Origin: an uncultured Gammaproteobacteria bacterium
Lineage (GTDB): Bacteria; Patescibacteriota; Microgenomatia; PFEM01; JAPLYW01
Direction: 5' to 3'
Length of the DNA stretch: 64,000 nt
Assembly: GCA_965230945.1 (NCBI GenBank)
Contig: OZ246397.1
Location: 374,284-438,283, forward strand
Shown here: positions 7,389-59,278 of the stretch, in pieces
How the letters are laid out: the number at the start of each line of letters is the position of its first letter
How positions within the stretch are numbered: position 1 is the first letter of the stretch
Position numbers and translations under genes: made by a program
The notes under the pieces: model-generated
Told to the model about the DNA's origin: nothing
The model's input: only the letters and a program-made list of their open reading frames with translations
The model's database searches: none

Positions 7389-8181
7389 TTTTAATTAAAT
7401 CACTAATTTGGTTTTGAATATTGTTTTCTTTATTGGTTTTTGTTTTTTCTTTTTCTTCTAGAGGCTGGTTTTGAAGAGCAGCTTTGACCATCGGTGTTTG
7501 ATATTGAGAAGCTTCGGCCATTTGCTGGCCAGCTGATTCAGGATTATAAATGTCGTAAAAAAGACGAATTAATTCATGGTTATCAAGCTGATGGGCTTGA
7601 AGACCCAACCGCGAAAGCTGTCGCAAGAGATGGTCTCTTTTGGGGTAAAGGTTTATTTTGGCCTGCTGGATAATATACCCCTTATCTAAAGCTGGAGCTT
7701 GGCCTTGTTTTTTAAAGGGTAAATTAGACAAAGCAGAAGGAAGGGTAGTTTTTATGTTTTTAGCCAGCCCCATTTCTAAAGCTTCCATGGGAATGATGAT
7801 ATGGAATTTCTTATCCAAAACGTTGTTTTTTTGGACAGTTTCTTGGATAAATTCCTTGTATTTGGTAATTTGTTGTTTAATGAGTTGTCTTTTTTCTTTG
7901 GCTTCCCTTTCCGCTAGTAAAGCTAAATAAGAAGTAACATCTTTCCTGGTAGAGCGGATAAAAATCTGGATGGGGAAGGTTAAAGAATTTAATAAAGCAG
8001 CATAAGCATAAATGGTGGCTTCTTGCTCTTTTTCTGAAAGCAAACCGAAGTTAATGGCGGTGGTGCCGATAACAAGACAAGAAGAACCGTTTTTACGAAT
8101 GATAATCCCTTCTTGAATATCTTCTATTTCAAGATGATCTTGGGTTGAGGCCCTAATAGCCATTTTTATAGGATCAGCCAT
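7360..8181 (-). CDS. Hypothetical protein of the T4SS-like operon (no TM; N-terminal segment loosely resembling conjugative ATPase N-termini)
   Basis: 273-aa ORF that overlaps the VirB4 start by 29 nt and the upstream VirB3-like stop by 8 nt. It contains DIQEGIIIRKNGSSCLVIGTTAINFGLLSEKEQEATIYAYAALLNSLTFPIQIFIRS. Confidence 0.5.
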   Translation of the reverse strand: MADPIKMAIRASTQDHLEIEDIQEGIIIRKNGSSCLVIGTTAINFGLLSEKEQEATIYAYAALLNSLTFPIQIFIRSTRKDVTSYLALLAEREAKEKRQLIKQQITKYKEFIQETVQKNNVLDKKFHIIIPMEALEMGLAKNIKTTLPSALSNLPFKKQGQAPALDKGYIIQQAKINLYPKRDHLLRQLSRLGLQAHQLDNHELIRLFYDIYNPESAGQQMAEASQYQTPMVKAALQNQPLEEKEKTKTNKENNIQNQISDLIKNGTTVSKKE

Positions 8182-9178
8182 GTGATTGATCGGCCAGACC
8201 AGGATTAACTGGTGTGGCCACCCTTTCTTTAGCTCTAATTTCTATTGGCTGTATAATTTCGCCTTTAGTTTCAATTTTAATTAAATCAAACAAATAACCT
8301 TCTTTTTCAATTTCAATTTCATATTCTCCATTTTGCAGGGGGGTGGCAATCATAAACTGGCCAACTTTATTGGTTTTTAAGGCCCTGACAGGTAGGCCCT
8401 GAGCATCTCTGATTTCTAGGATAGCTCCTTCCATGATTTTACCTTCATGGTCTAAGGCCATACCGCTGATGATATTAGGCCTGGTAGGTGCTTCAGGGAT
8501 AGGCAGCTCTTTATTGATTTTGGCTTCTACAGCTGTTTTTTTAGGTCGGCCTGGTTTTTGTGGTAGAACCACAGGCGGTGGTATTATTTTTCGAAGGTCA
8601 ATTTTAGGTTCAGGCGGCATGGGTCTTGCCGTTGGAGAAGGAGTCATTGGTGGTGGACCAAGACCTGGTTCGGCTTGGGGTTGAACAGCTGCTATCGGGG
8701 TTGATTGGAAAAGATGATCAACTTCTTTTAGGAAACTTTCTTCTTGCTGATCAAGGGGATTTTTTTCTTCGCTATAAGGTAAGCTAGCTAGATATTGATT
8801 GAGCTCTCCTTTATCGCCTTGAAGAGAAGTTGGCTGTGCTTGAGGCATACTTGGATGATAGGGTAAGGGCTTAAAGACGTTTGGTTTTTTAACCTTCTTT
8901 TTCCAAATAAACTGGGTAGGAGAAAAGACGGCTTTAAAAAAAGATAGTAGCCAAGTGCTTAAAGGTCGTTCATTAATAGGCAAAAAGGCAAAGGCAAAGC
9001 CTAAAAAGCCAAAAAGAATAACCAACGGCCACTTAAATAAAGACGGTATCGGCAAGGCATAGGTAATAATGGCCAAAACCCCACCGGTAGCTAATTGGAA
9101 AAACTGCTTAAGAGTCATATCGCCGACAAGACGGAATTCGTATGAAGCGATATGTTGTGGGACAGGATGTTGTTCCAT
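8174..9178 (-). CDS. PrgI/VirB3-like small membrane module fused to a Pro-rich linker and C-terminal beta-sandwich-like domain
   Basis: The N-terminal ~95 aa are YEFRLVGDMTLKQFFQLATGGVLAIITYAL plus a second TM, which is PrgI/VirB3-like. A Pro-rich linker (PPPMTPSPTARPMPPEP) follows, then a C-terminal globular domain. It is the first gene of the operon. Confidence 0.55.
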   Translation of the reverse strand: MEQHPVPQHIASYEFRLVGDMTLKQFFQLATGGVLAIITYALPIPSLFKWPLVILFGFLGFAFAFLPINERPLSTWLLSFFKAVFSPTQFIWKKKVKKPNVFKPLPYHPSMPQAQPTSLQGDKGELNQYLASLPYSEEKNPLDQQEESFLKEVDHLFQSTPIAAVQPQAEPGLGPPPMTPSPTARPMPPEPKIDLRKIIPPPVVLPQKPGRPKKTAVEAKINKELPIPEAPTRPNIISGMALDHEGKIMEGAILEIRDAQGLPVRALKTNKVGQFMIATPLQNGEYEIEIEKEGYLFDLIKIETKGEIIQPIEIRAKERVATPVNPGLADQSHG

Positions 9179-9326: not shown

Positions 9327-11153
9327 ATGATGGAATCTAAAGGTGATGGCGGTCACAATTTTAATAAAGAAGTCAGTAAACCTGAAGGAAAGAGGATTAT
9401 TTGGTCTGAAATGGGAAGTCTTTTGAAGGATGACTCTAAAGGAGAAAAGGTTATAAAAAATCCCTTTTTGACTAGGTTAGTAAAACTTCTTTCGACAGCT
9501 GATGAAAAACGTCTTGCCGGTAAAAATTTAAGAGCCTGGCTTGATGAGGGAGATAAAAGGTGGGTTTTGGGTGATGTTTCTAAAGAAGAATGGGAAATTG
9601 TGGCTGGTGTGATAGCCGAGAGACTTGATAAGCTTGCAGGCGAGGGTGATGAAGATGCAGATTTGTCTAAGACTCTGGGGGAAAGTTTAGAAAAATCAGG
9701 AGAAAAGACAGTAAGAGCGATTAGGGATCTTAAAAATTCTCAGGAGAAAAGACAACAAATTCTTGCTGGAGAAAGAGAAGAAGAAGTCCCAGATGATGAA
9801 GAAAAACAGAGAATAAAGCTCATTATGATGGTAGAGAAGATTGAGAATAATAATCTGCCGTTGACTGACTATCGTAATACAGATATTGCCGGAAGGATAG
9901 GGACGATGATAGAAGATGAAAAGGTAAATGAGGATTTAAGAAAAGAGTGCATGGCAAGATTGAGGCTTCGTCATTGTTCAGCTATTGCTGATGCCATTCC
10001 TCCAGGTTCCAAATTAGCAAAAGAGTTTCTTATTGAATCACTTACTAATCCAGAGTCTAGATATTATGTACTTCAGGGTGATGATTTCGATTTACTTTTA
10101 AGGAAAGGCTTACCCGGCCTAAAGGTGGCTGAAGCTTTTAAACTTTTAGAGAAAGCTTCTACTTTAGGTAGAGAGATAATAGATGAAAAAGGTAAGAAGG
10201 TAAGAAAGACCTTAATGGATGAAAGTTTGTCTTTGTCGCAAAGGGAAACAATCCTGAGATCTATTATTGAAAATTTAGGTGGTGGGAAAGAAGCTAAAAA
10301 ATCTTTACAGCTAGCCCAGAGGATAGCGAAAGCTACTTTGGAGACTTCAGTTTGGAATGTAAATATACTAGGTAACGATCCCTTGTCTGAGATAATCTAT
10401 TTTAAAAATTACAGATTTGGTCGAGCTAAGACAGCTAGGGATAAAGGTCCGCTATTAACCATCAGTAGAATTGAGGGTTTTGGTAGCTCTTTTTTTAGAA
10501 GTGCGAAGAATTTTGATCAAAAGATGCTTTTCATGCCCAATGAAGATTTAAAGAAGATTAATAAAGAGAGTGATGATAGTGAGAGGATAAATAGGCTTTT
10601 ACTAAGAAACAGAGGTAGAGACGATGGCGGGAAGTTGAATAAAAATGTGGGGAGATTTGAGCGCTTTCTTGATATTGATGAAATGGAATTTACTGGAATT
10701 GCTCCAGATTCTTACTTAGTATGGCTTGGTCTTAACTTACCCAGATTATTTTTTGTTAAGGATTTGCTTCTTAAAACTCATTGGGAGCCCCAAGATTTTA
10801 ATTCAGATGCCATTGAAAGTTGGGCGAAGCCAATCTCTGTGGTCGATCCTGAAGAAATTTTAGGATTGAGAGTTGAATTTGTAGCTGGTGCTTTCTGGTC
10901 AATTTTTTCAAGACCATCTGAAGCAATGAATAGTGGTTGGGATGGTTTTAGCCTTCAGGCAGTTATAAAAAATTTGACTCGCAGTTTTGAAATTAAAGAT
11001 GAGGAAGGAAGAGAAAAGGAGATTTCTTTTTTAGATCAAGATCGCCGGAATTTTGTTATTAAATATCTTAAAAATTTTGGTATTAATATATATCATGAAG
11101 CGGCTAAAATTGGTACAAAAATTCGTTATACGAAGAGATTTATTGGTAGGTAG
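9327..11153 (+). CDS. Hypothetical protein (608 aa, charged, no recognisable domain)
   Basis: Long ORF transcribed divergently from the T4SS-like operon. Confidence 0.5.
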   Translation: MMESKGDGGHNFNKEVSKPEGKRIIWSEMGSLLKDDSKGEKVIKNPFLTRLVKLLSTADEKRLAGKNLRAWLDEGDKRWVLGDVSKEEWEIVAGVIAERLDKLAGEGDEDADLSKTLGESLEKSGEKTVRAIRDLKNSQEKRQQILAGEREEEVPDDEEKQRIKLIMMVEKIENNNLPLTDYRNTDIAGRIGTMIEDEKVNEDLRKECMARLRLRHCSAIADAIPPGSKLAKEFLIESLTNPESRYYVLQGDDFDLLLRKGLPGLKVAEAFKLLEKASTLGREIIDEKGKKVRKTLMDESLSLSQRETILRSIIENLGGGKEAKKSLQLAQRIAKATLETSVWNVNILGNDPLSEIIYFKNYRFGRAKTARDKGPLLTISRIEGFGSSFFRSAKNFDQKMLFMPNEDLKKINKESDDSERINRLLLRNRGRDDGGKLNKNVGRFERFLDIDEMEFTGIAPDSYLVWLGLNLPRLFFVKDLLLKTHWEPQDFNSDAIESWAKPISVVDPEEILGLRVEFVAGAFWSIFSRPSEAMNSGWDGFSLQAVIKNLTRSFEIKDEEGREKEISFLDQDRRNFVIKYLKNFGINIYHEAAKIGTKIRYTKRFIGR

Positions 11154-11165
11154 TTTTTAGCAATA

Positions 11166-12650
11166 TTATGTATGATAGTGTTTTTGTTTTTTTGCCTGTT
11201 CTAAGTCCACTTCTTTTTCTTTTCCAGCGGAGATTGATGGGAAAACACGTTGTTTTATATAAGTGCCACCAAGATCTTTTGCTTGTTCCCACCCCCATCT
11301 AACAGGTGCAGTGACTGGGGCTAAGGTTTGGCCAAGAGCTGTTCCATATTCAAATGGTTTTTTGGTAATAGCAGATTGGATTATGTCAGCTGCTTTGGGG
11401 ATAAGCAGGATAATAAAAATTCCAACGAAAGGGAAGATGAGGGTGGTGAGTATCCAGAATGGACCGTATGTTGCGCTAGTCTTCAAAATACTCCCTAGGC
11501 CGATGAAGTTAAACTCTGCTATAGCTGTTAAAGCCTTACCATAGTCACCTGTAAGTTTTCCAATTGCTTCTAAAACGCCTGTGATCATAAGGTAAAAGCC
11601 AAGAAGAAGCATAGTAAGCATTGTGGGTAAAACAGCAATGTTGGCTAGGAGGTTTTTAAACCAGGCTCCCATAGCGTTGCTTCCAGGCAAAACTCCTATT
11701 AGGATTTGGAATGGAGCAAAGATAAGATTGATAACTATCATCGCAAAGGCTTTAAGTAAGGTCCAGAGGGCACGAAAGAATGCAATTAATAAAAGAAGCC
11801 CAATAATTAAGTTTAAAATTAATCCAAGGGGAAAGAGAAAGATGAAAAACATAAAAATATAGGGAGCGGCAAGGAGCATAACGAAATAGTTAGTAAGTAG
11901 GCCTAAGGCAAGACCGCCTAGCCCCATATCAGCACCAAAAAAGTCTAAGGCGCTATTTTTTAAGGTTCCTCCAAGCCCCTCAAATAATTCAACAGTAAGA
12001 CCCCAAAAGATATTACCGATAACCCCATTTATAAAAAAGGCGACATCAATTAACAAGCCTACGATTGCGTAAGAGAGGGTAATCAAAATTAAAGCAAAAA
12101 CAACTCGTGGTAGAGCAGATTGAATAGTAATTACGGCTTGGGGGGAGATTTTTACTCGGAACATAATAGCAAAGCCCATTCCTACCAAAATAAGAGCAAA
12201 GAGAATATAGGAGATATTACGAAAAGCTTTCCAAATGTTTTGGGTTATCGCCATAATTTTATACCCAGAAACGATTTTTTCTTGAGCGTAAACAGGCTTT
12301 GTAATTCCTAACTGCCTCCCGATATCAGCGAAATACTGAACCCCAGAAGCCGGTGGAGAACTATAAATACCGGCAATTAAAATCGTTGTCGCTCCAAGTA
12401 AACCTGGATTTTTTTCTCTAGCTTCAGGATCCCAAAAATTGCCAATAATAAAATGTTGAATTGAACCAGCAATAGCTTTCATTGTTTCATTAACAAAGCT
12501 TTGGAGGTTCATTTCTTCCGCCTTGATGGCTTCTTCAAATTGGAATTGGCTACCTTTGGTTTCAAAGGCTAAAGCGGGGCGAAGAAACAAAGGAAGAATC
12601 AGAAGAAAGATAAGAATTCCTAAAACGACTTTTCTTTTTTTGGCAGGCAT
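11166..12650 (-). CDS. VirB6/TrbL-like polytopic membrane protein
   Basis: 494 aa with signal peptide (LGILIFLLILPLFLRPALAFE) and an ~110-aa extracytoplasmic region. Six or more TM helices follow. It sits beside the pilin genes and the VirB4 locus. Confidence 0.6.
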   Translation of the reverse strand: MPAKKRKVVLGILIFLLILPLFLRPALAFETKGSQFQFEEAIKAEEMNLQSFVNETMKAIAGSIQHFIIGNFWDPEAREKNPGLLGATTILIAGIYSSPPASGVQYFADIGRQLGITKPVYAQEKIVSGYKIMAITQNIWKAFRNISYILFALILVGMGFAIMFRVKISPQAVITIQSALPRVVFALILITLSYAIVGLLIDVAFFINGVIGNIFWGLTVELFEGLGGTLKNSALDFFGADMGLGGLALGLLTNYFVMLLAAPYIFMFFIFLFPLGLILNLIIGLLLLIAFFRALWTLLKAFAMIVINLIFAPFQILIGVLPGSNAMGAWFKNLLANIAVLPTMLTMLLLGFYLMITGVLEAIGKLTGDYGKALTAIAEFNFIGLGSILKTSATYGPFWILTTLIFPFVGIFIILLIPKAADIIQSAITKKPFEYGTALGQTLAPVTAPVRWGWEQAKDLGGTYIKQRVFPSISAGKEKEVDLEQAKKQKHYHT

Positions 12651-12704: not shown

Positions 12705-14453
12705 CTATTTTTTGGGTCGTAAAGCTTCATTAACAACATATTCTTTCGCTTTTTGAACCCCGCCAAGGTGGGGGAAATAAAATAAACCTTTTTGGGGAGA
12801 AACATCTGGGTCATAGCTGTAAGAAACTGTGTCTGCTGCGGCTATATCGTCAAAAACTGGGTAGCTATGAGGGCGAAAGATATTAAAGAAACCGCCATTA
12901 GCATTGGCAGTATAACTCCAGATTTCGTCTAGATAAGGATGATAAAGATTGACACCAAAACCGCGGGAAACATCCTTTTCAGCTGGATCATTGCAAGATG
13001 CTGAAGGAGAGGCACTTAAAATACATTCGTCATAAAAAGGATTATCAAATTCTTCCTGAGCAACTAATTTTCCTGTGATTTCTTGACAACAAAGTTCGTC
13101 ACCATCCTCGTTGGCTAAAAGATAATTTTCTTTAAAGCAGGCGTAGGGTGGGGTGGTTTTGGAGATTTCGGGAGTTTTAACCATTTCAATTTCTTTGCCT
13201 TTTGGAGTAAGGATTTGGCTGATGATTTGGCTTCCCTCATAAAGCCGAGCCAAATGAGGTACAGCCTCAATTTTAGCTTCTTCAACTTCAAAAGTATCTT
13301 CTGGATGTTCATAAGCCAAATAGGGATCAATTTTACCTTGAATATCTTCCCGACTTAACATTGGTGTTGCCTGCCAAAGCCGATACCATTCCCCCTCATC
13401 TCTATTTTTCCATTCTAAAAAATCCTCTTTATATTTTAAAAAATCTTCTTGGTATTTTTCTTCATTTGGGTTAGGGGGAGGGATAATTTCAGAAAGATTT
13501 TCCTCTTCTGTTTTGCCTGTATAGATATGAACTATTCCTGGTATTTTCTGAGAGAGTTCAGTCAAACCCTTATAAATGTCTCCAATAATAGGTGCTTTTT
13601 CAATGAAATCGCTTGTTTTGGCAACAAACCAACCAGGGGTTCCTTCTTGAAGACTAGCATAAAGACAGTAGTGGCCAATATCTGGAATATCTAGTTTAAT
13701 TTCTGGGGGGTTTTCATAATTCAAAATGTGGCTAAAAAAGGCGATAATCTTGTTGACTGTCTCACGGTTGACAAAATCAACGATTTCTTCACCAACAAAC
13801 TTAGTTGCATCTAGCCAAAAAGGAAAGTCCCAACAAAAGCGGCCAATATATTTAATCTTGTAATCATGAATCTCTTTTTCTTGAGCTCTTGTTATCAATT
13901 GTTTTTTAAGTTGATTTTGATATTCAAAGGGTGTGAGTTTTCTTAATATTCCTTGATAATTAGTGAGAGTGGTTTTATTGCCATGATTGCGATAATATTC
14001 ATCAGTTCCCTCTAGATAATCAGCTAGATATTTTTCTTCGCTGGCATTAGAAATTTCCCAAAACTGGAACAATGTTTCTTCTTCCATATTTCTTTTACCG
14101 ACAAAAGGAATTTTGATTTCGGTGGGGTCGATAGTTACATTACCAGTCCAGTCTTCTTTAATAATTTCACCTTCGTTTTTGCGATATTCAATTTCATCAA
14201 ATACTTCAAAAGAGGTAGCACAAAAGGGAGTAAGGGGAGCTTCCTTATCGCATAAATTGCATTTTGCCGGTCGAGGATCTCTTTCTAATGAAGTTTCGCC
14301 AGGATCACATTCAACTTCAGCAGGCCCTAGGGATTTAGCGAAAATTGATTGAACACCAAATTTGGAAAAGGAGAAAATAATAAAAAAAATAAGCAAAAAA
14401 AATAAGGCGGCCTTTTTCATTAAAGAAAATCTAAGGATTGAGCAGGGTTTCAT
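12705..14453 (-). CDS. Secreted Cys-rich protein (candidate pilus-associated adhesin/tip protein)
   Basis: 582 aa with N-terminal signal/TM and many Cys pairs (CDPGETS, CNLCDKEAPLTPFC, CCQEITG). It lies between the VirB6-like gene and the pilin array. The true start is probably the internal MKKAAL (about 14420). Confidence 0.5.
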   Translation of the reverse strand: MKPCSILRFSLMKKAALFFLLIFFIIFSFSKFGVQSIFAKSLGPAEVECDPGETSLERDPRPAKCNLCDKEAPLTPFCATSFEVFDEIEYRKNEGEIIKEDWTGNVTIDPTEIKIPFVGKRNMEEETLFQFWEISNASEEKYLADYLEGTDEYYRNHGNKTTLTNYQGILRKLTPFEYQNQLKKQLITRAQEKEIHDYKIKYIGRFCWDFPFWLDATKFVGEEIVDFVNRETVNKIIAFFSHILNYENPPEIKLDIPDIGHYCLYASLQEGTPGWFVAKTSDFIEKAPIIGDIYKGLTELSQKIPGIVHIYTGKTEEENLSEIIPPPNPNEEKYQEDFLKYKEDFLEWKNRDEGEWYRLWQATPMLSREDIQGKIDPYLAYEHPEDTFEVEEAKIEAVPHLARLYEGSQIISQILTPKGKEIEMVKTPEISKTTPPYACFKENYLLANEDGDELCCQEITGKLVAQEEFDNPFYDECILSASPSASCNDPAEKDVSRGFGVNLYHPYLDEIWSYTANANGGFFNIFRPHSYPVFDDIAAADTVSYSYDPDVSPQKGLFYFPHLGGVQKAKEYVVNEALRPKK

Positions 14454-14455
14454 TT

Positions 14456-14824
14456 TTAATCTAGCGTTTTATAAGGAATTGTTATGTTTGTAGTAAGGTT
14501 GATGCCGGTGAATTTTTCTAAAAAGAGCATTATAAACCAGGCGGCGATGACCGTTACTAGGCCGAAGATAGCATAGGTGATGGTTTGACTTGCAGCTTGG
14601 GTTCTTTTAGGATCACCACCAGCAGTAAGATATTGGAAACCACCGACAATAAGCATAATGAAAGCAGCGATTCCAGCTAATCGAACAACGATATTAAGAA
14701 TTCTTGAGATAATGGAACCTAGGTCTTCAATTTTTGCCGGTTGATCAGGATCGGCTTCGTTTGACCATCCTTGAGCCAAAACAAGCGCCGGCAACATGGC
14801 TAGATAAGAGGTAATTTTCTTCAC
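14456..14824 (-). CDS. VirB2/TrbC-like pilin paralog 1
   Basis: 122 aa with a signal-peptide-like N-terminus. Two hydrophobic helices are separated by the loop TAGGDPKRTQAASQ. Confidence 0.65.
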   Translation of the reverse strand: MKKITSYLAMLPALVLAQGWSNEADPDQPAKIEDLGSIISRILNIVVRLAGIAAFIMLIVGGFQYLTAGGDPKRTQAASQTITYAIFGLVTVIAAWFIMLFLEKFTGINLTTNITIPYKTLD

Positions 14825-14894
14825 GCTTTAAATTTACACTAAAAAAATATACCCGTCAAGAAAAGTAGTTTAAATAATTAAACCCTTTTGTTGC

Positions 14895-15149
14895 CTAGAC
14901 GGTTGGGATGCTTAAGGTTAAGATTTGGATACCAAAGAAGGTTTCAATTAACCTTATAATAGCCCAAGCAGCAAAAACAATGACTAAGCCAACTAAGGCA
15001 GCCGTCAAGGTTTGTTGAGCATTAGCTGTTTTTTCTTTATCGCCACCTGAGGTAACCCATTTAATACCACCGATGATTAGGAAGATAAAGGCGATTAAGG
15101 CAGCAATGACTAAAATTAAGCGGATGGCGCCAGAAACAATTCTAGGCAC
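14895..15149 (-). CDS. VirB2/TrbC-like pilin paralog 2 (annotated from GTG; an N-terminal leader is likely encoded upstream from a non-AUG start up to about 15260)
   Basis: Two-helix core with the loop TSGGDKEKTANAQQ. The in-frame upstream extension has no ATG but sits 7 nt after a strong SD (GGAGGTG). Confidence 0.55.
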   Translation of the reverse strand: MPRIVSGAIRLILVIAALIAFIFLIIGGIKWVTSGGDKEKTANAQQTLTAALVGLVIVFAAWAIIRLIETFFGIQILTLSIPTV

Positions 15150-15312
15150 TGTTAATTCAGCTAGATTGGCAAATTGGCCTCCTGGAGCAAGATCAATTTC
15201 TTCAGCTGCAAAAACAACAGCAGGGAGTATATTTTTGATTTTACTAATTAGTTTTTTAATATTTTTTCACCTCCTTTCACTTTAATAATATTATTATGCT
15301 TCTTACTTACTG

Positions 15313-15684
15313 TCAAATTGTACCGGCTGTTGGTAAAGGAATTTTCAGATCTTTAAGCCAGCCTAGTCCAAAGATACTGCCAATAAAATTAGCAATGGCA
15401 AAAACACAGATGAGAATGATAAAGCCAACAATGGCATTGCTAAGTCTTCTTTGGGCGCCCTGAAGTCTTTCTTTATCAGAGCCGCTGGTGGCCCAGGCAA
15501 TACCACTCCAGACAATCATGATTAGAAGTATGATTGCGCCGGCAATAATCATCATATTGATAATATTAGCGAGTAGTTGTCCAATAATAACTGGTCCGGC
15601 ATCGGTGCCGCCCCTACCAAATTTAGGCACTAGAGGGTTATAAATAGTGCCTTCTTGAGCGAAAACAGTCTTTATTATTTTCAT
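15313..15684 (-). CDS. VirB2/TrbC-like pilin paralog 3
   Basis: 123 aa two-helix protein with the loop ATSGSDKERLQGAQ. Confidence 0.65.
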   Translation of the reverse strand: MKIIKTVFAQEGTIYNPLVPKFGRGGTDAGPVIIGQLLANIINMMIIAGAIILLIMIVWSGIAWATSGSDKERLQGAQRRLSNAIVGFIILICVFAIANFIGSIFGLGWLKDLKIPLPTAGTI

Positions 15685-16052
15685 TGGCCTCCAATGTTTA
15701 TAATATTGGTAATAGCTTCATTAATTTCTAAAAACCTTACCCCAAAAATTTTCCCTACCAGAGCTATTAATGCATAGGCTCCAACAACAATGGCCAGACC
15801 AATAATAGAGTTAGTTAATTTACGGCCAGCATTAACGAGTCTTTCTCTATCTCCACCAGCGCTTAAGTAGTTGTAGCCAGCAACAATAACCTGGAATAGA
15901 AACCAAATACCAGCACCAATAGTCATTGCTCCTATGGCTATACTAATGATGTCAGCAAGAATAACTCCTGGCTGTTCTGGGCTAACCCAAGGTCCTAAAC
16001 CTTCTCCTCCAATGGTGCCTAATTCTTTGTCTGCTAGTAATATTCTTGTCAT
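15681..16052 (-). CDS. VirB2/TrbC-like pilin paralog 4
   Basis: 123 aa with the loop SAGGDRERLVNAGR. Confidence 0.65.
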   Translation of the reverse strand: MTRILLADKELGTIGGEGLGPWVSPEQPGVILADIISIAIGAMTIGAGIWFLFQVIVAGYNYLSAGGDRERLVNAGRKLTNSIIGLAIVVGAYALIALVGKIFGVRFLEINEAITNIINIGGQ

Positions 16053-16053
16053 T

Positions 16054-16461
16054 TTATTCCCCTGGTCCGTAAATAACTGGTTTTAAAATAGCGGTGGCAT
16101 TACCAAATAAAAGTAAACCTAATAATCCAGCTAAGGCAAAGGAGCCAATGATAATTAATAGCCCTACCATTGATTGCCAGATCTTAGCCCAGGCAAGTTC
16201 GACTTTTTTAGGATCACCAGCGGCGCTCATAAATTGGTATCCAGCTAAAATGAAATTGAACAAAGCCCAAATTCCGGCACCAACAACAAGAAGTTTAAGA
16301 ATGTTATTAAAGAGAACGATCATTCCTTCTGGTCCTCCCCCAGGATATAACTTTTCAAGCGCCTCTGGGGGCTTTATTTTACCGAAAATACCTCCTGTCT
16401 TTATTGAGCTGCCTTTCCCTGCGTCTATATCTTGATATAGAGATGCTAGTCTATTTATCAT
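16054..16461 (-). CDS. VirB2/TrbC-like pilin paralog 5
   Basis: 135 aa with the loop SAAGDPKKVELAWA. Confidence 0.6.
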   Translation of the reverse strand: MINRLASLYQDIDAGKGSSIKTGGIFGKIKPPEALEKLYPGGGPEGMIVLFNNILKLLVVGAGIWALFNFILAGYQFMSAAGDPKKVELAWAKIWQSMVGLLIIIGSFALAGLLGLLLFGNATAILKPVIYGPGE

Positions 16462-16802
16462 AAGCCTGAGTTAAAAATATTGATTCCTGTTACAATTTCG
16501 ATAATTCTTATAATCCAAAAGGAACAAAAGATGATAACAAAGCCAATTAAAGCAGCCGTAATTGCTTGTTTGCCTTTTTTGGCTTGTTCTGGATTCTCTT
16601 GTCCTGCTCCCATCATAAACATAAATCCACCGACAATCAAGAGTATGAAAAGAATTATTCCAGCAAGGATATAAATGTTGTTTAAAAGATTGGAAATTAT
16701 TTCTCCAATTGAACCAAACCCAGGAGCATCTTTAATACCGGTATTTTGTTTAACCCAAAAATCTTCACCGATATTTATCTTAAAAGCAAGTAATTTTTTC
16801 AC
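16458..16802 (-). CDS. VirB2/TrbC-like pilin paralog 6
   Basis: 114 aa with the loop GAGQENPEQAKKGKQ. Confidence 0.6.
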   Translation of the reverse strand: MKKLLAFKINIGEDFWVKQNTGIKDAPGFGSIGEIISNLLNNIYILAGIILFILLIVGGFMFMMGAGQENPEQAKKGKQAITAALIGFVIIFCSFWIIRIIEIVTGINIFNSGL

Positions 16803-16856
16803 CGCCTTAGTTTAGCAAGATTTAGTTAAAAGTGTCAACAAAAAGTTAGACTTTAA

Positions 16857-17597
16857 ATGTTTAAAGTGCTAGAATCAGTACTTACCGTGGCCAAGTTAGA
16901 ACTAGATATGGACAATATTCCTCAGCATATTGGTATTATTATGGATGGTAATCGAAGATGGGCAGAAAAGAAAGGTCTAGGCGTTGATGAAGGCCATGAG
17001 GAAGGTTTAAGAGCTTTAGAAAAAATTGTTGATCATTGTTTAGAATTAGGAGTAAGGAATTTGACCGTTTATGCTCTTTCTACTGAAAATTGGCGAAAAA
17101 GAACGAAAAGTGAGGTAAAAGGCATTTTCAGTCTTTTACTTAGGGTTTGTAAAGAAAAGAAAGAGAAATACCAAAAAAGAGGCATTAAATTTGTGGTTTT
17201 GGGTGAGTTTCAAGCTTTTCCCCGCAAGGTGGCTCGAGCCATTAAAGAAGTGCTTGACATTATTAAGAAAAATGAACGCTTAAGAGTTAATGTTGCTTTA
17301 AATTATGGAGGTCGAGATGAAATTCTTCGAGCTGTTAAAGAAGTTATATCTCATAAAATTCCCGCCAAAAAAATTAATGAAAAAATCTTTGGCAAATTCC
17401 TTTATACCAGTGGTGAACCTGATCCTGATTTAATTATTCGCACTGGAGGAGAAGTTAGACTTTCTAATTTTCTTTTATGGCAGATCTCTTATGCTGAACT
17501 TTACTTTACTAATGTTTTATGGCCTGATTTTACCCCAAAAGAGTTAGACAAAGCGATTATTGAATACCAGAGGAGAAAAAGAAACTTCGGGAAGTAG
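16857..17597 (+). CDS. uppS: Undecaprenyl diphosphate synthase (isoprenyl transferase)
   Basis: UppS motifs DGNRRWA, STENWRR and RTGGEVRLSNFLLWQISYAELYF. Confidence 0.93.
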   Translation: MFKVLESVLTVAKLELDMDNIPQHIGIIMDGNRRWAEKKGLGVDEGHEEGLRALEKIVDHCLELGVRNLTVYALSTENWRKRTKSEVKGIFSLLLRVCKEKKEKYQKRGIKFVVLGEFQAFPRKVARAIKEVLDIIKKNERLRVNVALNYGGRDEILRAVKEVISHKIPAKKINEKIFGKFLYTSGEPDPDLIIRTGGEVRLSNFLLWQISYAELYFTNVLWPDFTPKELDKAIIEYQRRKRNFGK

Positions 17598-17915
17598 TTA
17601 TCTTAAAATACTTATTCCAAAAACAATTTCTAGAATTCTCATTAGCCAATAGCTGATAAAAATAATAACAAAGCCAATAATTGCCGAGGTGATTCTTCCC
17701 TGAGCGGTTTTAACCTTGTCTGGATTACCGCCAGAAGTTAAAAGGCCAAATCCACCCATAATTAGCATAATAAATAAAACTAAGCCAGCAATGGTAAAAA
17801 TATAAGGAATTAATGCAGAGATAATATCACTGATACTGGCATCTTTAAATTTAAAACCAATAGGTTCGGTAATTTCTTTTTCTACTCCTGGTAAAGTTAA
17901 AGCTAATTTTTTCAT
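17598..17915 (-). CDS. VirB2/TrbC-like pilin paralog 7 (start taken at the internal MKKLALTL)
   Basis: Loop TSGGNPDKVKTAQG. The stop of the upstream paralog lies 1 nt before this ATG. Confidence 0.6.
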   Translation of the reverse strand: MKKLALTLPGVEKEITEPIGFKFKDASISDIISALIPYIFTIAGLVLFIMLIMGGFGLLTSGGNPDKVKTAQGRITSAIIGFVIIFISYWLMRILEIVFGISILR

Positions 17916-17916
17916 T

Positions 17917-18186
17917 TTATTTGAACCCCGGAATCTCAAGAATATCATGGCCAAGAAGTCTCAGTATAAAAACAGAAAAGATGATTAAAAGTAGGCCAGC
18001 AATGGCCGAGGTAATCATTTCCTTACCAGCTTTGACTCTATCTGGGTTACCTGCTGATAGAATAATTTGAAAACCGCCAAAAACAATAAGTAAAAAAGCA
18101 ATTACTCCACCTAGACCCATGGCGATTGGGAGTATGTTGTTGATTTTTTCAGCGAGGTCTTCCATATGTTGCTTAAATTCTATCAC
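17917..18186 (-). CDS. VirB2/TrbC-like pilin paralog 8
   Basis: 89 aa with the loop SAGNPDRVKAGKE. Confidence 0.6.
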   Translation of the reverse strand: MIEFKQHMEDLAEKINNILPIAMGLGGVIAFLLIVFGGFQIILSAGNPDRVKAGKEMITSAIAGLLLIIFSVFILRLLGHDILEIPGFK

Positions 18187-23238: not shown

Positions 23239-23583
23239 GGGGATGTAAGAATCGACGGAAAAGTTCTTTAAAAGACTGCAGGCCGAGAATGATACTGCTC
23301 GTTAAAGTGTATCGAAAACAATTGGCGTAAATAAAAACGCTCCTGTTTACGCATACGCTTAAACAGTGCCCATTTTCTTCTTTCTTGGTGGGATGAATGG
23401 GTATCAACAAAGCCAAGATGCGATCTTAATGTTTGATTCACATTAAGGTTTAAGCCTGAGAATCTTTACCTTAACTTTCCGGTCAACAGGATCAGGTTAA
23501 GGCGAGAATTAAAAGTTGACTAAGCTTGTAGAAGTTTTTTAATAATTTTTTCGGACCCCGTTTCATCGCGGGCATCTCCACCA
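23239..23583 (+). ncRNA. ssrA: tmRNA (SsrA)
   Basis: The 5' end GGGGATGTAAGAATCGACGG matches tmRNA 5' ends. The 3' end GACTAAGCTTGTAGAAG...TTTCGGACCCCGTTTCATCGCGGGCATCTCCACCA matches the tmRNA tRNA-like domain and encodes CCA. The acceptor pairs GGGGATG with CATCTCC. It lies immediately 3' of smpB. Confidence 0.8.
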
Positions 23584-23615
23584 AGAAACTGTCGGATTTA
23601 CCGGCAGTTTTTTTA

Positions 23616-24296
23616 TTGATTATGTTTTTACTTAATCTTTTGTTTCCTAAAATTTGCTTGGGTTGTGGCAAATGGGGCAACTATCTTTGCTCTGATTGTC
23701 AAAAAAAGATAAAACCAGTTGTTAATCAAATTTGTCCTCTTTGTCGTTTACCTAGTTTTAAAGGCAAAACCCATCCTGTTTGTCAGAAAAAAGAATCTTT
23801 AGATGGATTAATCTCTCTTTTTTATTACAGGGGTTTGATAAGAAAAGTAATTTCCAGATTAAAATATAGATTTGTTAAGGATTTAAAAGGGGAGTTGAGT
23901 AATCTTTTAATTAAAAATATATTTTTACAAAAACCTTCTTTTTTAAAAGATTCTTCTTTGATTTTAATTCCCGTGCCACTTCATAAAAAAAGGCAAAACT
24001 TTCGTGGTTTTAATCAAACAGAGATCTTAGGTCAGGATTTAGCTTTGTTTTTTAATTGGCAGTTTAAGCCTCGTTTATTAGAAAGAACAAGAAATATCTT
24101 ACCCCAGGTTTCTTTAAACAAAGAACAGAGAATAAGAAACATTAAAGGAGCTTTTGAAATTAATGGTTCGGTTAAAGGTTTAAATTTTTTAATTTTTGAT
24201 GATGTTTGGACGACTGGTTCCACTCTAAAAGAGATGGCTTTAGTTTTAAAGAAAAACAAGGCTAAAAAGGTCTGGGGGTTAACGATTTGCCGCTAA
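23616..24296 (+). CDS. comFC: ComF-family protein (ComFC-like phosphoribosyltransferase with N-terminal zinc ribbon)
   Basis: N-terminal CxxC...CxxC pairs and a PRTase motif FLIFDDVWTTGSTLKEMA. Confidence 0.8.
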   Translation: MIMFLLNLLFPKICLGCGKWGNYLCSDCQKKIKPVVNQICPLCRLPSFKGKTHPVCQKKESLDGLISLFYYRGLIRKVISRLKYRFVKDLKGELSNLLIKNIFLQKPSFLKDSSLILIPVPLHKKRQNFRGFNQTEILGQDLALFFNWQFKPRLLERTRNILPQVSLNKEQRIRNIKGAFEINGSVKGLNFLIFDDVWTTGSTLKEMALVLKKNKAKKVWGLTICR

Positions 24297-24317
24297 AAAT
24301 GTTATAATCAAGTTCAA

Positions 24318-24404
24318 GGAGGAGTCGCATAGTCGGTCCATTGCGGGAGTTTGCTAAATTCCTGAGCCGCAAGGCTCACGTGGGTTCGAATCCCACCTCC
24401 TCCG
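24318..24404 (+). tRNA. tRNA-Ser (anticodon GCU)
   Basis: Acceptor GGAGGAG/CTCCTCC. Anticodon stem-loop GGAGT-TTGCTAA-ATTCC. Long variable arm, T-loop TTCGAAT, no encoded CCA. Confidence 0.8.
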
Positions 24405-24416
24405 CTTAAAATTTGA

Positions 24417-24503
24417 GGTGGGATGCCGGAGCGGTTTAACGGCCCGGTCTTGAAAACCGAGGAGGGTGTAAATCCTACGTGAGTTCGAATCTCACTCCCA
24501 CCG
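24417..24503 (+). tRNA. tRNA-Ser (anticodon UGA)
   Basis: Acceptor GGTGGGA/TCCCACC. Anticodon loop CTTGAAA, long variable arm, T-loop TTCGAAT. Confidence 0.75.
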
Positions 24504-24530
24504 CTTCCATGTTATAATTAATTTGGAAAG

Positions 24531-25061
24531 ATGCCTGCTCAAAATAAAACCAGATCAAGTACATTAACAACAAAGGTAGAGCCATTGAAGGTATTACTTG
24601 AATGGCAGGCCTCATCTAGAGTTTTTAAAGAGAAAAGTAGAGAGGCAATTACTACCATTGGAGCCATTTTAATTTTGGTTGGTATCATCCTCATTTTTCT
24701 AAAGGAATGGTTTTTGATTGCCGTCATTATTGCCCTGGCTTTCTTTTTTTATATCTTAAGTACTGTTAAACCAGAAAAAATTACTCATCAAATTAGCAAT
24801 AAAGGAATAGTCACTGGCGGTAAGAATTATCCTTGGGAACAGCTTTTAAGGTTTTGGTTTGAAGATCAAGGAGGGCAAGTCATTCTTTATGTTGATGGTT
24901 TTGAGAGATTTGCTTTTCGCTTAATGCTCCTTTTGGATGACAAAAAACCTCAAGATTTAAAAAAGATTCTTGCCGATTATCTTCCGGAAGAAAAGCCACC
25001 GCAGAATTGGGCTGATAAAGCTGGCAGTTGGATTTCTGATCAGATTCCTTTAGGTAAATAA
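24531..25061 (+). CDS. Hypothetical membrane protein (176 aa)
   Basis: ORF with a two-TM hairpin. Confidence 0.45.
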   Translation: MPAQNKTRSSTLTTKVEPLKVLLEWQASSRVFKEKSREAITTIGAILILVGIILIFLKEWFLIAVIIALAFFFYILSTVKPEKITHQISNKGIVTGGKNYPWEQLLRFWFEDQGGQVILYVDGFERFAFRLMLLLDDKKPQDLKKILADYLPEEKPPQNWADKAGSWISDQIPLGK

Positions 25062-25064
25062 TTT

Positions 25065-25138
25065 GTACCCGTAGCTCAACGGATTAGAGCGCGGCCCTGC
25101 GGAGGCCGAGGTTAGAGGTTCGAGTCCTCTCGGGTACG
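25065..25138 (+). tRNA. tRNA-Arg (anticodon read as GCG)
   Basis: Canonical cloverleaf GTACCCG-TA-GCTC-AACGGATTA-GAGC-G-CGGCC-CTGCGGA-GGCCG-AGGTT-AGAGG-TTCGAGT-CCTCT-CGGGTAC-G. Confidence 0.7.
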
Positions 25139-25157
25139 CACGTTTCTGCCATTTTAA

Positions 25158-25243
25158 GGAGGAGTGGCAGAGTGGTAATGCGATCGCCTCGAAAGCGATG
25201 GGGTTTTTAACCCTTGCAGGTTCGAATCCTGTCTCCTCCGCCA
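25158..25243 (+). tRNA. tRNA-Ser (anticodon CGA), CCA encoded
   Basis: Acceptor GGAGGAG. Anticodon stem-loop ATCGC-CTCGAAA-GCGAT. Long variable arm; the 3' end is ...CTCCTCC-G-CCA. Confidence 0.78.
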
Positions 25244-25244
25244 A

Positions 25245-25317
25245 GCCCTTGTAGCTTAAAGGATAAAGCAGTGGCTTCCGGAGCCAAAGATTAGAGGTTC
25301 GAGTCCTCTCAGGGGTA
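25245..25317 (+). tRNA. tRNA-Arg (anticodon CCG)
   Basis: Acceptor GCCCTTG/CAGGGGT with two G-U pairs. D-arm GCTT-AAAGGATA-AAGC. Anticodon loop TTCCGGA. T-arm identical to the 25065 tRNA. Confidence 0.65.
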
Positions 25318-25325
25318 CTTAGAAG

Positions 25326-25775
25326 ATGGAAAAAACTAAAAAAGAACTTTTAGCTGGTGAAGTGGTTTTTAAAAGGATAGGGAAAGAGATTCTTTGGTTA
25401 CTAATTAAGTCTAAAGAAAATGATCAATGGTCTCTTTCTAAAGATTACCTTAAGGGAGTGGAAAGTTCAGTGGCCGCTGCCAAAAGAGGGGTTAAAGAAG
25501 AAGTAGGGATAGAGACAGAGATTTTAGAAAAAATAGGTAACGAAAACTATTTCTTTTATGAAAACAAGCAAAGGACTTTTAAAACCGTCATTTTTTATTT
25601 AATGAGGCATCTTGAGGATATCAAAGATGACTTTCACCGGGAGACAAAAAAGATTGGCTGGTTCCCTTATTTCAAGGCTAAAAAAAGATTGGCCCTTGAA
25701 AAAGAAAAAGAGATTTTAAAAAAGGCTAAAGAGATTTTAAGACAAAAGGAAAGGCAGTTAAGATTAACAAAATAG
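25326..25775 (+). CDS. NUDIX-family hydrolase (divergent Nudix box)
   Basis: GVESSVAAAKRGVKEEVGIE resembles the Nudix box GX5EX7REUXEEXGU. Confidence 0.5.
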   Translation: MEKTKKELLAGEVVFKRIGKEILWLLIKSKENDQWSLSKDYLKGVESSVAAAKRGVKEEVGIETEILEKIGNENYFFYENKQRTFKTVIFYLMRHLEDIKDDFHRETKKIGWFPYFKAKKRLALEKEKEILKKAKEILRQKERQLRLTK

Positions 25776-25862
25776 GGAGGAGTCGCATAGCGGCCTAGTG
25801 CCCGTGCTTGGAAAGCGCTGGGGGATGAAAGTCCCACGTGGGTTCAAATCCCACCTCCTCCG
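25776..25862 (+). tRNA. tRNA-Ser (anticodon GGA)
   Basis: Acceptor GGAGGAG/CTCCTCC. Anticodon loop TTGGAAA, long variable arm, T-loop TTCAAAT. Confidence 0.7.
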
Positions 25863-25869
25863 CTCATAG

Positions 25870-29769: not shown

Positions 29770-29784
29770 CTAGCTTCAGAAAAT

Positions 29785-59261: not shown

Positions 59262-59278
59262 AGACCTTATTATAGTCT

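Follow-up and report, generated by a model that had tools for sequence, protein, structure and literature searches.

An array of eight probable VirB2-like pilin-family genes, divided by uppS, in an origin-proximal type IV secretion locus of a Microgenomatia bacterium

Introduction

Why one type IV secretion system (T4SS) locus should hold eight different pilin-like genes is the question raised by the stretch of DNA analysed here, 64 kb in length and termed the window below. A preliminary description had put forward antigenic variation, host-range variation or heteropolymeric pili to account for them; of these three options the evidence favours the last. Our reading, to which we give a probability of about 0.6, is that the genes form an array of VirB2-like, PF18895 pilin-family subunits that co-assemble in an origin-proximal chromosomal T4SS of the kind typical of the ultra-small Patescibacteria (CPR), here in a Microgenomatia (Shapirobacteria-like) bacterium. 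The array is a real but already described kind of feature, which the preliminary description had not recognised; what is added here is the conservation of its layout, dN/dS ratios below 1, the lack of recombination repeats and the existence of natural multi-pilin fusions.

Results

Layout of the array

All eight small ORFs are present where they had been placed, on the minus strand, and an HMM made from the eight pilin cores retrieves exactly these eight from the 64 kb, with no ninth pilin-like ORF.

17917-18186, minus: p8, leaderless pilin-like protein with two transmembrane (TM) segments, starting at GTG 18186 (89 aa) or ATG 18165 (82 aa) (PF18895 E 5.9e-11)
17598-17915, minus: p7, pilin-like, probably 105 aa from ATG 17915, 1 nt after the p8 stop (PF18895 E 3.5e-10)
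16857-17597, plus: uppS (undecaprenyl diphosphate synthase), between p7 and p6 (PF01255 E 1.4e-79)
16809-16838, minus: promoter-like site TTGACA-18-TAAACT upstream of p6 (consensus scan)
16458-16802, minus: p6, pilin-like, 114 aa, GTG start within AAGGCGGTG (PF18895 E 5.3e-11)
16054-16461, minus: p5, pilin-like, 135 aa, ATGA overlap with p6, two TM (PF18895 21.2 bits, below cut-off)
15681-16052, minus: p4, pilin-like, 123 aa, 1 nt after the p5 stop, two TM (PF18895 18.6 bits, below cut-off)
15313-15684, minus: p3, pilin-like, 123 aa, ATGA overlap with p4 (PF18895 E 1.5e-7)
15288-15316, minus: similar promoter-like site upstream of p2 (consensus scan)
15267-15277, minus: Shine-Dalgarno AAAGGAGGTGA for the p2 ATT start, read directly from the sequence
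14895-15260, minus: p2, pilin-like, 121 aa from the probable ATT start at 15260
14831-14859, minus: similar promoter-like site upstream of p1 (consensus scan)
14456-14824, minus: p1, pilin-like, 122 aa (PF18895 E 2e-12; hydropathy)

The genes are not the single tandem run first reported: uppS, overlooked then, lies on the opposite strand and divides them 2+6, p8-p7 and p6 to p1. It occupies the same place in the relatives L086, L088, L089 and L090, all of which keep the complete 2+uppS+6 layout. The coupling proposed earlier is borne out at the junctions—a shared ATGA (4-nt overlap) at p6/p5 and p4/p3, a spacing of 1 nt at p5/p4 and p8/p7—and implies that the pilin genes are expressed jointly. 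Promoter-like sites are in total no more numerous than expected by chance in the consensus scan, so only the placement of the three listed, each in an intergenic gap, is suggestive. The copies are intact, none being a silent or truncated cassette, and no long DNA repeats usable for cassette exchange or recombination were found among them.

Two of the ORFs described earlier need other starts. The 84-aa form of p2 (14895-15149, from GTG 15149), called in both the public annotation and the preliminary description, is truncated: 37 codons upstream are open, and the extended form aligns over 100% of its length with homologues of 118-134 aa. Initiation most likely occurs at ATT 15260, preceded 9 nt upstream by a perfect Shine-Dalgarno, AAGGAGGTGA, and yields 121 aa; the equivalent start codon is ATT in L088, TTG in L086 and L081, and ATG in L087, and the added N-terminal residues show purifying selection (dN 0.17, dS 1.0). 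For p7 the most likely start is ATG 17915 rather than the TTG of the 118-aa ORF (17598-17954), giving the 105 aa found in its orthologs and in the JGI gene call on an identical contig (L094).

Family and fold

PF18895 (T4SS_pilin) matches all eight proteins, six of them at 31.8-47.5 bits; p4 and p5 fall below the curated cut-off of 26.6. It ranks first in every case, and where there is a rival match the margin is 3 to 9 orders of magnitude. The family is very large, with 88,242 representatives at 50% identity (E up to 1e-3). NF045849, a model for a Mycoplasma ICE pilin-like protein, matches seven of the eight (E 1.7e-7 to 1.6e-4). Homology to canonical VirB2 is not detectable by hhalign (probability 0.27%, E 0.23); the TrbC model PF04956 touches p6 alone among the copies, weakly (E 0.011); and no significant structural or sequence match was found in the PDB. 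Hairpins of ATP synthase subunit c appear in the non-significant part of the Foldseek list.

The two-helix layout noticed at the outset was recovered by hydropathy as exactly two predicted TM segments in each protein, joined by a short basic loop of GG(D/N)P type; all eight loops listed earlier (AGGDPKR, SGGDKEK, SGSDKER, AGGDRER, AAGDPKK, AGQENPE, SGGNPDK and AGNPDR) are there. In the AF2 model of p2 residues 38-109 form a hairpin (H38-70/H75-109), mostly at pLDDT > 90, whose helices run to 33-35 residues, more than a bilayer span. Helices that exceed the bilayer in this way are seen in the conjugative pilins VirB2 and TraA.

N-terminal segments

The regions preceding the helices cannot be aligned between copies, as the preliminary description implied, but its uniform leader of 30-45 aa fits only p1-p6 (28-43 aa), being shorter in p7 (24 aa) and essentially absent from p8 (0-7 aa). 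Nor is the leader one unit: in p1-p3 a short signal-like peptide with an AxA|Q-type end is followed by a G/P-rich segment which would remain on the mature protein. The p1 N-terminus is of Sec-type signal-like character, MKKITSYLAMLPALVLA|QG, and that of p3 reads MKIIKTVFA|QEG; the A-Q at these putative cleavage sites recalls the cleavage of the VirB2 leader before Gln. Signal-peptidase-like sites are proposed for p1-p3, but the hydrophobic stretches in the short N-terminal peptides of p3-p6 fall below the length of classical Sec signals, so cleavage is putative. Among free-standing pilins, 15 of 49 carry [AVST]xA[QADE] within the first 30 aa, compared with 4.1 in shuffled sequences. Large N-terminal changes between relatives are confined to p1, whose orthologs have either a signal-peptide N-terminus or a short Cys-containing one, and p8, whose orthologs in L086 and L088 (188-193 aa) have a signal/TM segment and a Cys-rich N-terminal domain, both absent from p8 itself.

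Conservation and natural fusions

Proteins at the same position in different genomes are 57-85% identical, compared with 21-58% between different copies and 21-47% between copies within the window. Across the same genomes, the identity of VirB4 is itself no more than about 70-88%. The p6 ortholog in L088 is 82% identical; values for p5 are 74% and 63%, for p4 77% and 57%, for p3 72% and 63%. Evolution is about 2.3 times faster in the N-terminal regions than in the cores, yet pooled dN/dS stays below 1 in both (~0.31 and ~0.09 respectively, values that are rough because dS is near saturation). The copies look like old, individually conserved, specialised subunits rather than a fast-changing variation cassette.

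In other genomes, natural proteins combine 2-17 pilin domains; p8->p7(->p6-like) fusions recur, and one six-domain fusion lies within an array. Of the consecutive domain pairs that could be confidently typed, only 5 of 19 follow the gene order of the window. Some linkers are signal-peptidase-like, (A/V)(Y/H)A|Q, echoing the N-termini of p1-p3: of 361 fusion linkers, 35 contain [AVST][YH]A[QAD], compared with 1.2 in shuffles. Pilins of relatives also carry Cys-rich or large extracellular domains fused to either terminus, which suggests surface display.

The T4SS locus

Downstream of the pilins lie the following genes.

12705-14453, minus: 582 aa, N-terminal signal anchor, start codon 2 nt past the p1 stop; gene at the same place in relatives (546-994 aa)
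11166-12650, minus: 494-aa protein, 8 predicted TM (hydropathy), no family match, position conserved
9327-11153, plus: 608-aa soluble protein lacking a Walker A motif; gene at the same place in relatives
8174-9178, minus: PrgI/VirB3-like membrane protein, 334 aa (PF12666 23.9 bits, cut-off 27)
7360-8181, minus: TrsD/TraC-like protein, 273 aa (NF045975 positions 103-315, E 8.8e-7; NF041427 TrsD, E 2.8e-4)
5556-7388, minus: VirB4-family ATPase, 610 aa, Walker A at residue 260 (NF045971, CD1110 family, 395.8 bits, cut-off 325; PF19044, PF03135)
2860-5559, minus: 899-aa membrane protein with three TM and a C-terminal M23 peptidase domain (PF01551 E 2.9e-19)

The VirB4, TrsD-like, PrgI/VirB3-like, 8-TM and M23 genes share the strand of the pilins. 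VirB4 passes the NCBIfam equivalog cut-off and has its closest relatives in Shapirobacteria/Microgenomates MAGs. The PrgI/VirB3-like ortholog in L089 gives an unmarked PrgI match; the TrsD/TraC-like protein resembles long VirB4 proteins over their N-terminal part, and PF26593 (TraC-like) matches it in L092/L093. By position and topology alone the 8-TM protein is a candidate VirB6/PrgH-like channel; the M23 protein is a candidate cell-wall hydrolase of the T4SS. Neither relaxase nor coupling protein was found. The locus adjoins dnaN and dnaA, the remainder of the window being housekeeping. Every relative examined shows linkage to T4SS genes apart from L091, whose 11-kb contig contains none. The T4SS-type identity first proposed for the pilin-like proteins thus stands, on PF18895 and the VirB4, TrsD-like and PrgI-like neighbours.

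Discussion

Each pilin would insert so that its two ends lie outside and its basic loop inside; a signal-like peptide of short length may be shed from p1-p3, and perhaps from p4-p6, at an AxA|Q-type site; and the VirB4 machine would build the eight non-redundant subunits into one envelope-spanning tube or pilus contacting the host cell, with the paralog-specific N-terminal segments on its surface. Co-assembly we infer solely from conservation, coupling and fusions. Several results count against this reading: only 5 of the 19 typed domain pairs in fusions keep the gene order of the window, p4 and p5 score below the PF18895 cut-off, the searches returned neither VirB2 homology nor a significant PDB match, and no Patescibacterial pilus or tube has been observed.

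The same genes could instead supply alternative pilins, each forming its own homopolymer or used on particular hosts, with N-termini under diversifying selection. The unalignable, faster-evolving N-termini, the switching of N-terminal type in p1 orthologs and gain or loss of the Cys-rich domain in p8 orthologs, and the promoter-like sites before p6, p2 and p1 would suit such variation, and a published paper on these arrays proposes adaptation to different host strains. Yet the positional orthologs keep 57-85% identity across genomes whose VirB4 proteins share only about 70-88%, N-terminal dN/dS is near 0.3 and not above 1, the junctions imply joint expression, neither silent or truncated cassettes nor recombination repeats are present, different pilin types are joined in one polypeptide elsewhere, and the whole pilin series is reported to be essential in S. 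epibionticum (Wang 2023, PMC10633639). The fusions, conserved layout, dN/dS below 1 and lack of repeats together favour non-redundant, co-assembling subunits over antigenic variation; antigenic or host-range variation is not supported as the main explanation, and we consider it quite unlikely.

It is unlikely, too, that no pilus is made and that the hairpins never leave the membrane, where they would form a multi-subunit ring or line the channel of a monoderm-type translocon, comparable to ATP synthase c-rings, "pilin" then being a misnomer. Monoderm T4SSs are generally without pili, and no Patescibacterial T4SS has yet been seen to make a pilus or tube (PMC12857230); the undetectable VirB2 homology, the subunit c hairpins in the Foldseek list and fusions of 6-17 hairpins (12-34 TM helices) without cleavage-like linkers, hard to extract as monomers, all sit well with a ring. 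Against it, the AF2 helices exceed the bilayer span, the extra domains at either terminus suggest display at the surface, and a family so large and diversified would, by inference, better fit an exposed structure. That these are unrelated small membrane proteins—holins, bacteriocin-immunity proteins or type IV pilus prepilins—mimicking pilins through hydrophobic composition is very improbable. Two-TM proteins are prone to compositional matches, and weak sub-threshold Pfam matches to many membrane families do occur (Peptidase_A24, E 0.005, for p7), but the ranking of PF18895, the T4SS linkage and the absence of the prepilin motif G-[FM]-x-x-x-E from all eight effectively refute these identities, and no phage or bacteriocin genes lie nearby. 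The preliminary description had named placement in an unrelated family lacking T4SS association as what would overturn it; the searches returned PF18895 and a T4SS locus.

Comparison with known systems

The array has its nearest parallels in other Patescibacteria, for which we took S. epibionticum ML1 (SEML1_0006-0019), N. lyticus TM7x and the 441 published arrays as the comparison set; the latter, from 383 assemblies, hold 2-11 pilins near dnaA and are abundant in Microgenomatia (Quinonero-Coronel 2025, PMC12102498). The likenesses are PF18895, low identity between copies (published mean 25%, maximum 54%; here 21-47%) and a neighbourhood of VirB4, TrsD and PrgI close to dnaA/dnaN, in which neither a relaxase nor a coupling protein was found. 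ML1 differs in having six copies to the eight here, and the interrupting gene here is uppS. A Microgenomatia layout with fixed positional orthologs is not described in the Patescibacterial array accounts consulted for comparison.

The canonical conjugative pilins VirB2 (Agrobacterium), TrbC (RP4) and TraA (F), with PF04956 covering VirB2/TrbC, are likewise small, with a leader-like N-terminus, two long hydrophobic helices and a short basic loop, and are encoded with VirB4; they differ in the lack of detectable sequence homology (only p6 touching PF04956) and in being one major pilin rather than eight paralogs in a monoderm host. The tandem VirB2 paralogs of Bartonella and Anaplasma are also several divergent pilin genes in the T4SS locus of a host-dependent bacterium, but are PF04956-type, diderm, eukaryote-associated and read as antigenic variation; the copies here are positional orthologs under purifying selection. 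The pilin-like conjugal transfer protein of Mycoplasma ICEs (Mbov_0395/MMCAP2_0565, NF045849) is encoded on a mobile element rather than by chromosomal genes as here, and all scores are below its equivalog cut-off of 40 bits, yet seven of the eight have it as their best NCBIfam match, over nearly the full length. The Mycoplasma ICE VirB4 model is also matched by the TrsD-like protein and VirB4 here, and these matches fit the published MPF-FATA ancestry.

Composition of the pilin array

Eight small minus-strand genes, termed p8 to p1 in the order of their transcription, occupy 14456-18186, exactly where a preliminary description made from the sequence by eye had placed them; every loop string it quoted was found, and its account of the gene junctions, with their overlaps and 1-nt gaps, was correct. 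It had read the eight as one tandem run, which they are not: uppS, on the other strand, breaks the array into p8-p7 and p6-p1.

17917-18186, minus strand: p8
17598-17915, minus strand: p7
16857-17597, plus strand: uppS (PF01255, E 1e-79)
16458-16802, minus strand: p6
16054-16461, minus strand: p5
15681-16052, minus strand: p4
15313-15684, minus strand: p3
14895-15260, minus strand: p2
14456-14824, minus strand: p1

Run against every stop-to-stop frame of the 64-kb window, an HMM of the eight aligned cores matched these eight ORFs only. By hydropathy all eight proteins have two predicted transmembrane (TM) segments, and their loop regions bear 2-4 Lys/Arg apiece. For p2 an AF2 model based on 50 orthologs shows a helical hairpin (helices 38-70 and 75-109, mostly pLDDT >90) and a low-confidence N-terminal part. 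An amphipathic, IISxLL-like segment is preceded by 28-43 aa in p1-p6, by 24 aa in p7 and by 0-7 aa in p8, which has no N-terminal extension; the leader of 30-45 aa that had been attributed to all copies is, with revised starts, a property of p1-p6 and not of p7 or p8.

PF18895 (T4SS_pilin) is the best Pfam match of all eight proteins. Six reach its gathering threshold of 26.6 bits (31.8-47.5 bits); p4 (18.6 bits) and p5 (21.2 bits) fall below it, match no other Pfam family, and have conserved positions within the array and the common two-TM layout. A second profile, NF045849 (Mycoplasma ICE pilin-like conjugal transfer protein, Mbov_0395), matches seven copies at E 1.7e-7 to 1.6e-4, p4 giving no match, and none reaches its equivalog cut-off (40 bits; best score 30.8 bits); judged by these profile scores p1-p8 are relatives of the NF045849 family, not members of it. 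The class III prepilin motif G-[FMILVA]-[ST]-x-x-E is absent from the first 40 residues of all eight copies, and type IV pilus (T4P) prepilins were ruled out on that ground. The PF18895 family assignment and the linkage of p1-p8 to a T4SS are solid.

Start codons of p2 and p7

The shortest ORF, p2, had been taken as complete at 84 aa. This is a truncated call, with 37 open codons upstream of it. Extended p2 is covered over 100% of its length by homologues of 118-134 aa, at up to 84% identity, and its N-terminal stretch shows dN 0.17 and dS 1.0 against the ortholog in L088, a relative with the array. No in-frame ATG, GTG or TTG exists upstream of 15149 in p2, a perfect AAGGAGGTGA lies 9 nt upstream of ATT 15260, the equivalent start codon in relatives is ATT (L088), TTG (L086/L081) or ATG (L087), and a 1-nt indel in the p2 spacer between window and L088 means that the frames upstream of p2 are not conserved; on these four observations we take ATT 15260 as the most likely start, for a protein of 121 aa. 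A frameshift or assembly error in the A6 run at the p2 start was rejected, since the ATT is common to L088 and the spacer indel leaves the upstream frames unconserved. Within the region 14895-15277 (minus strand) the conserved 37 N-terminal codons begin at the ATT that follows the perfect Shine-Dalgarno.

Because of the ATT start, public gene calls shorten p2: it appears as the truncated 84-aa form in the Logan and JGI calls on two window-identical contigs, L085 and L094, and an 84-aa protein record 99% identical to truncated p2 is present in NCBI and Logan. At the DNA level L085 and L094 are 100% identical to the window, p2 sequence included, so they are not independent strains and provide no independent evidence. 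A 615-kb NCBI contig, linked to the window genes by exact-protein look-ups only, likewise adds no independent evidence. The start of p7 is most likely ATG 17915, 1 nt past the p8 stop.

The T4SS locus around the array

The locus is chromosomal, close to dnaA/dnaN, and comprises, besides the pilins:

directly downstream of the array, same strand: 582-aa protein, signal-anchored
downstream of the array, same strand: 494-aa protein with eight predicted TM segments
downstream of the array, same strand: 899-aa M23 peptidase protein
opposite strand, interrupting the T4SS gene run: 608-aa protein, with a gene at the equivalent position in relatives
same strand: PrgI/VirB3-like protein (PF12666, 23.9 bits against a cut-off of 27)
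7360-8181, minus strand: 273-aa TrsD/TraC-like protein (TrsD model E 2.8e-4, far below its cut-off)
5556-7388, minus strand: VirB4 ATPase, 610 aa (NF045971, CD1110 family, 395.8 bits against an equivalog cut-off of 325; PF19044, PF03135)
689-1813: dnaN
9-461: dnaA C-terminus

Orthologs or identical copies of the PrgI-like and TrsD-like proteins have precomputed PrgI and TraC-like matches. On the Mycoplasma ICE VirB4 model, which is 894 residues long, the 273-aa protein covers positions 103-315 and the 610-aa ATPase 292-892; from these alignments VirB4 appears to be split in two genes, which overlap by 29 nt. The 608-aa protein was considered as a coupling ATPase and rejected: it lacks a Walker A motif, and neither family nor PDB searches gave a match. 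A family scan of all window ORFs of at least 334 aa found neither a relaxase nor a coupling protein (T4CP). The promoter/terminator scan returned 22 sites against 17.3±4.2 by chance, overall not above chance.

The host is probably a member of the Patescibacteria: the nearest informatively titled VirB4 loci, 74-84% identical, come from MAGs of Candidatus Shapirobacteria and Microgenomates. Among the closest loci many (L001, L002, L004, L005 and others) are MAG records titled 'uncultured Gammaproteobacteria' or 'Pseudomonadales', from binchicken co-assemblies, and a few are titled 'Bathyarchaeia' or 'Nanoarchaeia'; their VirB4 proteins are 66-88% identical to the Shapirobacteria-like VirB4 of the window, and so these titles look placeholder or wrong.

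The remainder of the window is housekeeping (smpB, tmRNA, dnaG, rpoD, pgk, gap, penicillin-binding proteins), and includes these features:

23239-25863, plus strand: tmRNA directly 3' of smpB, one protein gene (23616-24296), then a cluster of six tRNA genes (four tRNA-Ser, two tRNA-Arg) with small protein genes in between
29508-29770, plus strand: tRNA-Asp(GTC) with a 178-nt group I intron after the anticodon (Rfam RF00028, 81.5 bits, 29548-29724)
38661-41872, plus strand: two adjacent OmpR-type response regulators beside a PAS histidine kinase
56955-61516, minus strand: two adjacent class A penicillin-binding proteins

The tRNA-Asp gene, located between rpoD and a tRNA-binding-domain gene, was found by ARAGORN solely with the intron option on. 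The OmpR-type and class A pairs are paralog pairs in a small genome.

Relation to VirB2

Of the eight proteins only p6 matches PF04956 (VirB2/TrbC), and its score of 16.4 bits (E 0.011) is below the cut-off of 27.9. Comparison by hhalign of 24 CPR pilins with 24 VirB2 proteins gave a probability of 0.27% and E 0.23, the VirB2 alignment being a narrow one of rhizobial type, collected by a database search with an A. tumefaciens VirB2 query (top match 98% identical to the query). A Foldseek search of PDB with the p2 model yielded no match with E <0.9, and a profile of 50 p2 orthologs found nothing significant among PDB sequences; the two-helix hairpin is too generic for the model to be placed by its fold. 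For p1-p8 we could not show homology to VirB2; the 'VirB2-like' label comes from their architecture, their context and the name of the Pfam family. The copies consistently match the Mycoplasma ICE pilin-like family below threshold, and VirB4 and TrsD have Mycoplasma-type matches of their own; both findings hint at a hairpin protein possibly native to a monoderm lineage. The alternative considered is a pilin borrowed from diderm systems (Quinonero-Coronel et al. 2025, PMC12102498).

Poly-pilin fusions and their linkers

At E up to 1e-3 a profile of the eight copies matched 88,242 representatives of clusters formed at 50% identity. Its top-scoring matches each join 2 to 17 pilin domains in one polypeptide (P0241-P0390, from other genomes); P0242, for example, has 17 domains in 1775 aa. 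One six-domain protein is encoded within a pilin array (1777-3435 of L091, an 11-kb contig). In several fusions an extracellular domain precedes domains of the p8-like, p7-like and p6/p7-like types, in that order. Large Cys-rich or other extracellular domains are seen at either end of some poly-pilins. Strict typing of 19 consecutive domain pairs gave p8 to p7 four times, p5 to p4 once, the same type nine times and non-neighbouring types five times; the proposal that fusions always follow the window gene order is weakly borne out, by 5 of these 19 confident pairs. Fusion of different pilin types in one protein is real, and collinearity with the window is partial.

A subset of the linkers between fused domains has a motif in common. 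In an unbiased k-mer test of 361 fusion linkers YAQ, HAQ, AYA and VYA rank top, and [AVST][YH]A[QAD] occurs in 35 of them against 1.2±1.1 in shuffles. Of 49 free-standing pilins, 15 have the looser [AVST]xA[QADE] in their first 30 residues (4.1±1.9 in shuffles), among them the window copies p1 (VLA/QG), p2 (VFA/AE) and p3 (VFA/QE), where the slash marks the putative cut. Signal-peptidase I sites have small residues at -3 and -1. The AxA/Q-type motifs resemble such sites, and by that resemblance are putative maturation sites. We found no mention of fused poly-pilins or of the linker motif in the papers on such arrays that were consulted.

Orthology and selection among relatives

The order of genes in the locus is a divergent SpoIID-domain gene, p8 p7, uppS on the opposite strand, p6-p1, a large secreted protein, a membrane protein of ~500 aa, an opposite-strand gene, PrgI, TraC-like and VirB4. 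This full layout recurs in L086 and L088, and is kept in two more distant relatives, L089 with 8 pilins and L090 with 9, where further genes, isoprenoid or other, stand next to uppS; partial arrays are seen at the edges of other VirB4 loci and in L081-L084 and L087. The uppS gene (16857-17597 in the window) is always between two pilin sub-arrays and on the opposite strand; its neighbours include a polyprenyl synthase in L089 (4578-6484), and in L090 (2992-5842) also a sigma factor and small genes.

The best match of each window copy is the gene at the same position, at 72-85% identity in L088 and 57-78% in L086, as against 21-58% between different copies (21-47% for pairs inside the window). 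When the eight pairs with L088 are pooled, dN is 0.29 and dS 0.95 for the N-terminal parts, and 0.13 and 1.46 for the cores; both dN/dS ratios, rough because synonymous sites are near saturation, are far below 1, with N-terminal change ~2.3 times faster. Among relatives the terminal genes p1 and p8 change most: p1 orthologs have an N-terminus that is either signal-peptide-like or short and Cys-containing, and the p8 orthologs at L086:3712-4278 and L088:1192-1773 have an extra N-terminal part of ~100 aa (a signal/TM segment and a Cys-rich domain) that window p8 lacks. Window p8 itself is only ~15-65 nt from the divergent SpoIID-domain gene, and a pilin of L087 carries its Cys-rich domain C-terminally instead of N-terminally.

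What the array does

The best-supported mechanism, to which we assign a probability of about 0.6, is that eight old, non-redundant subunits would be co-produced and that the VirB4 machine would build them into a single envelope-spanning structure. That the pilin types, their order and the embedded uppS are all conserved argues for copies with separate places in one machine and against spare variants. Variation for host range or antigenicity is unlikely, and would concern mainly p1 and p8, whose N-termini differ most among relatives. The faster change of N-terminal parts sits with ratios far below 1. Cassettes of the pilE/pilS type do not fit the array, in which all eight copies are complete ORFs with starts, none silent and truncated, and which has no gene-conversion repeats: no long DNA repeats were found within it, the longest common stretches being 41-90 nt at 60-73% identity, in TM-coding parts. 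A metagenome scan with the adjacent 582-aa protein returned four short loci only, informative for orthology, not for strain-level copy number.

A ring that lies wholly in the membrane is a serious competitor of the envelope-spanning structure, though we think it unlikely. Within the reading as co-assembled subunits, a more specific and tentative proposal, which we lean against, is that the paralogs are obligate partners of one hetero-oligomeric assembly, encoded either as an array or as a 'poly-pilin' precursor from which (A/V)-(Y/H)-A/Q sites would release the subunits. The motifs in fusion linkers and at the N-termini of free-standing copies, window p1-p3 among them, would then be maturation sites of signal-peptidase type. 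If this were so, array and polyprotein would be two solutions to the problem of a fixed-stoichiometry multi-subunit T4SS tube in monoderm epibionts. Should the copies indeed be separate parts of one machine, the whole set is what structural and genetic work ought to address, and natural poly-pilins offer ready-made constructs.

Comparison with known systems

A predicted pilin series forms part of a T4SS cluster that is essential in S. epibionticum and lacks coupling and relaxase proteins (Wang et al. 2023, PMC10633639), and a survey with PF18895 counted 1135 assemblies that have VirB2-like pilins near virB4 (Quinonero-Coronel et al. 2025, PMC12102498). Given these published arrays, the window array is an instance of a known pattern and adds no new kind of system. 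The pattern matters in that the T4SS with its pilin series is the only type IV system reported essential for its own carrier (S. epibionticum) and a leading candidate for the means by which ultra-small epibionts draw on their hosts. The window provides a clean Microgenomatia example, with eight pilin types, their order and the embedded uppS all conserved, and its additions to the known systems are modest: orthology conserved by position, the probable ATT start of p2, and fused poly-pilins, some with peptidase-like linkers.
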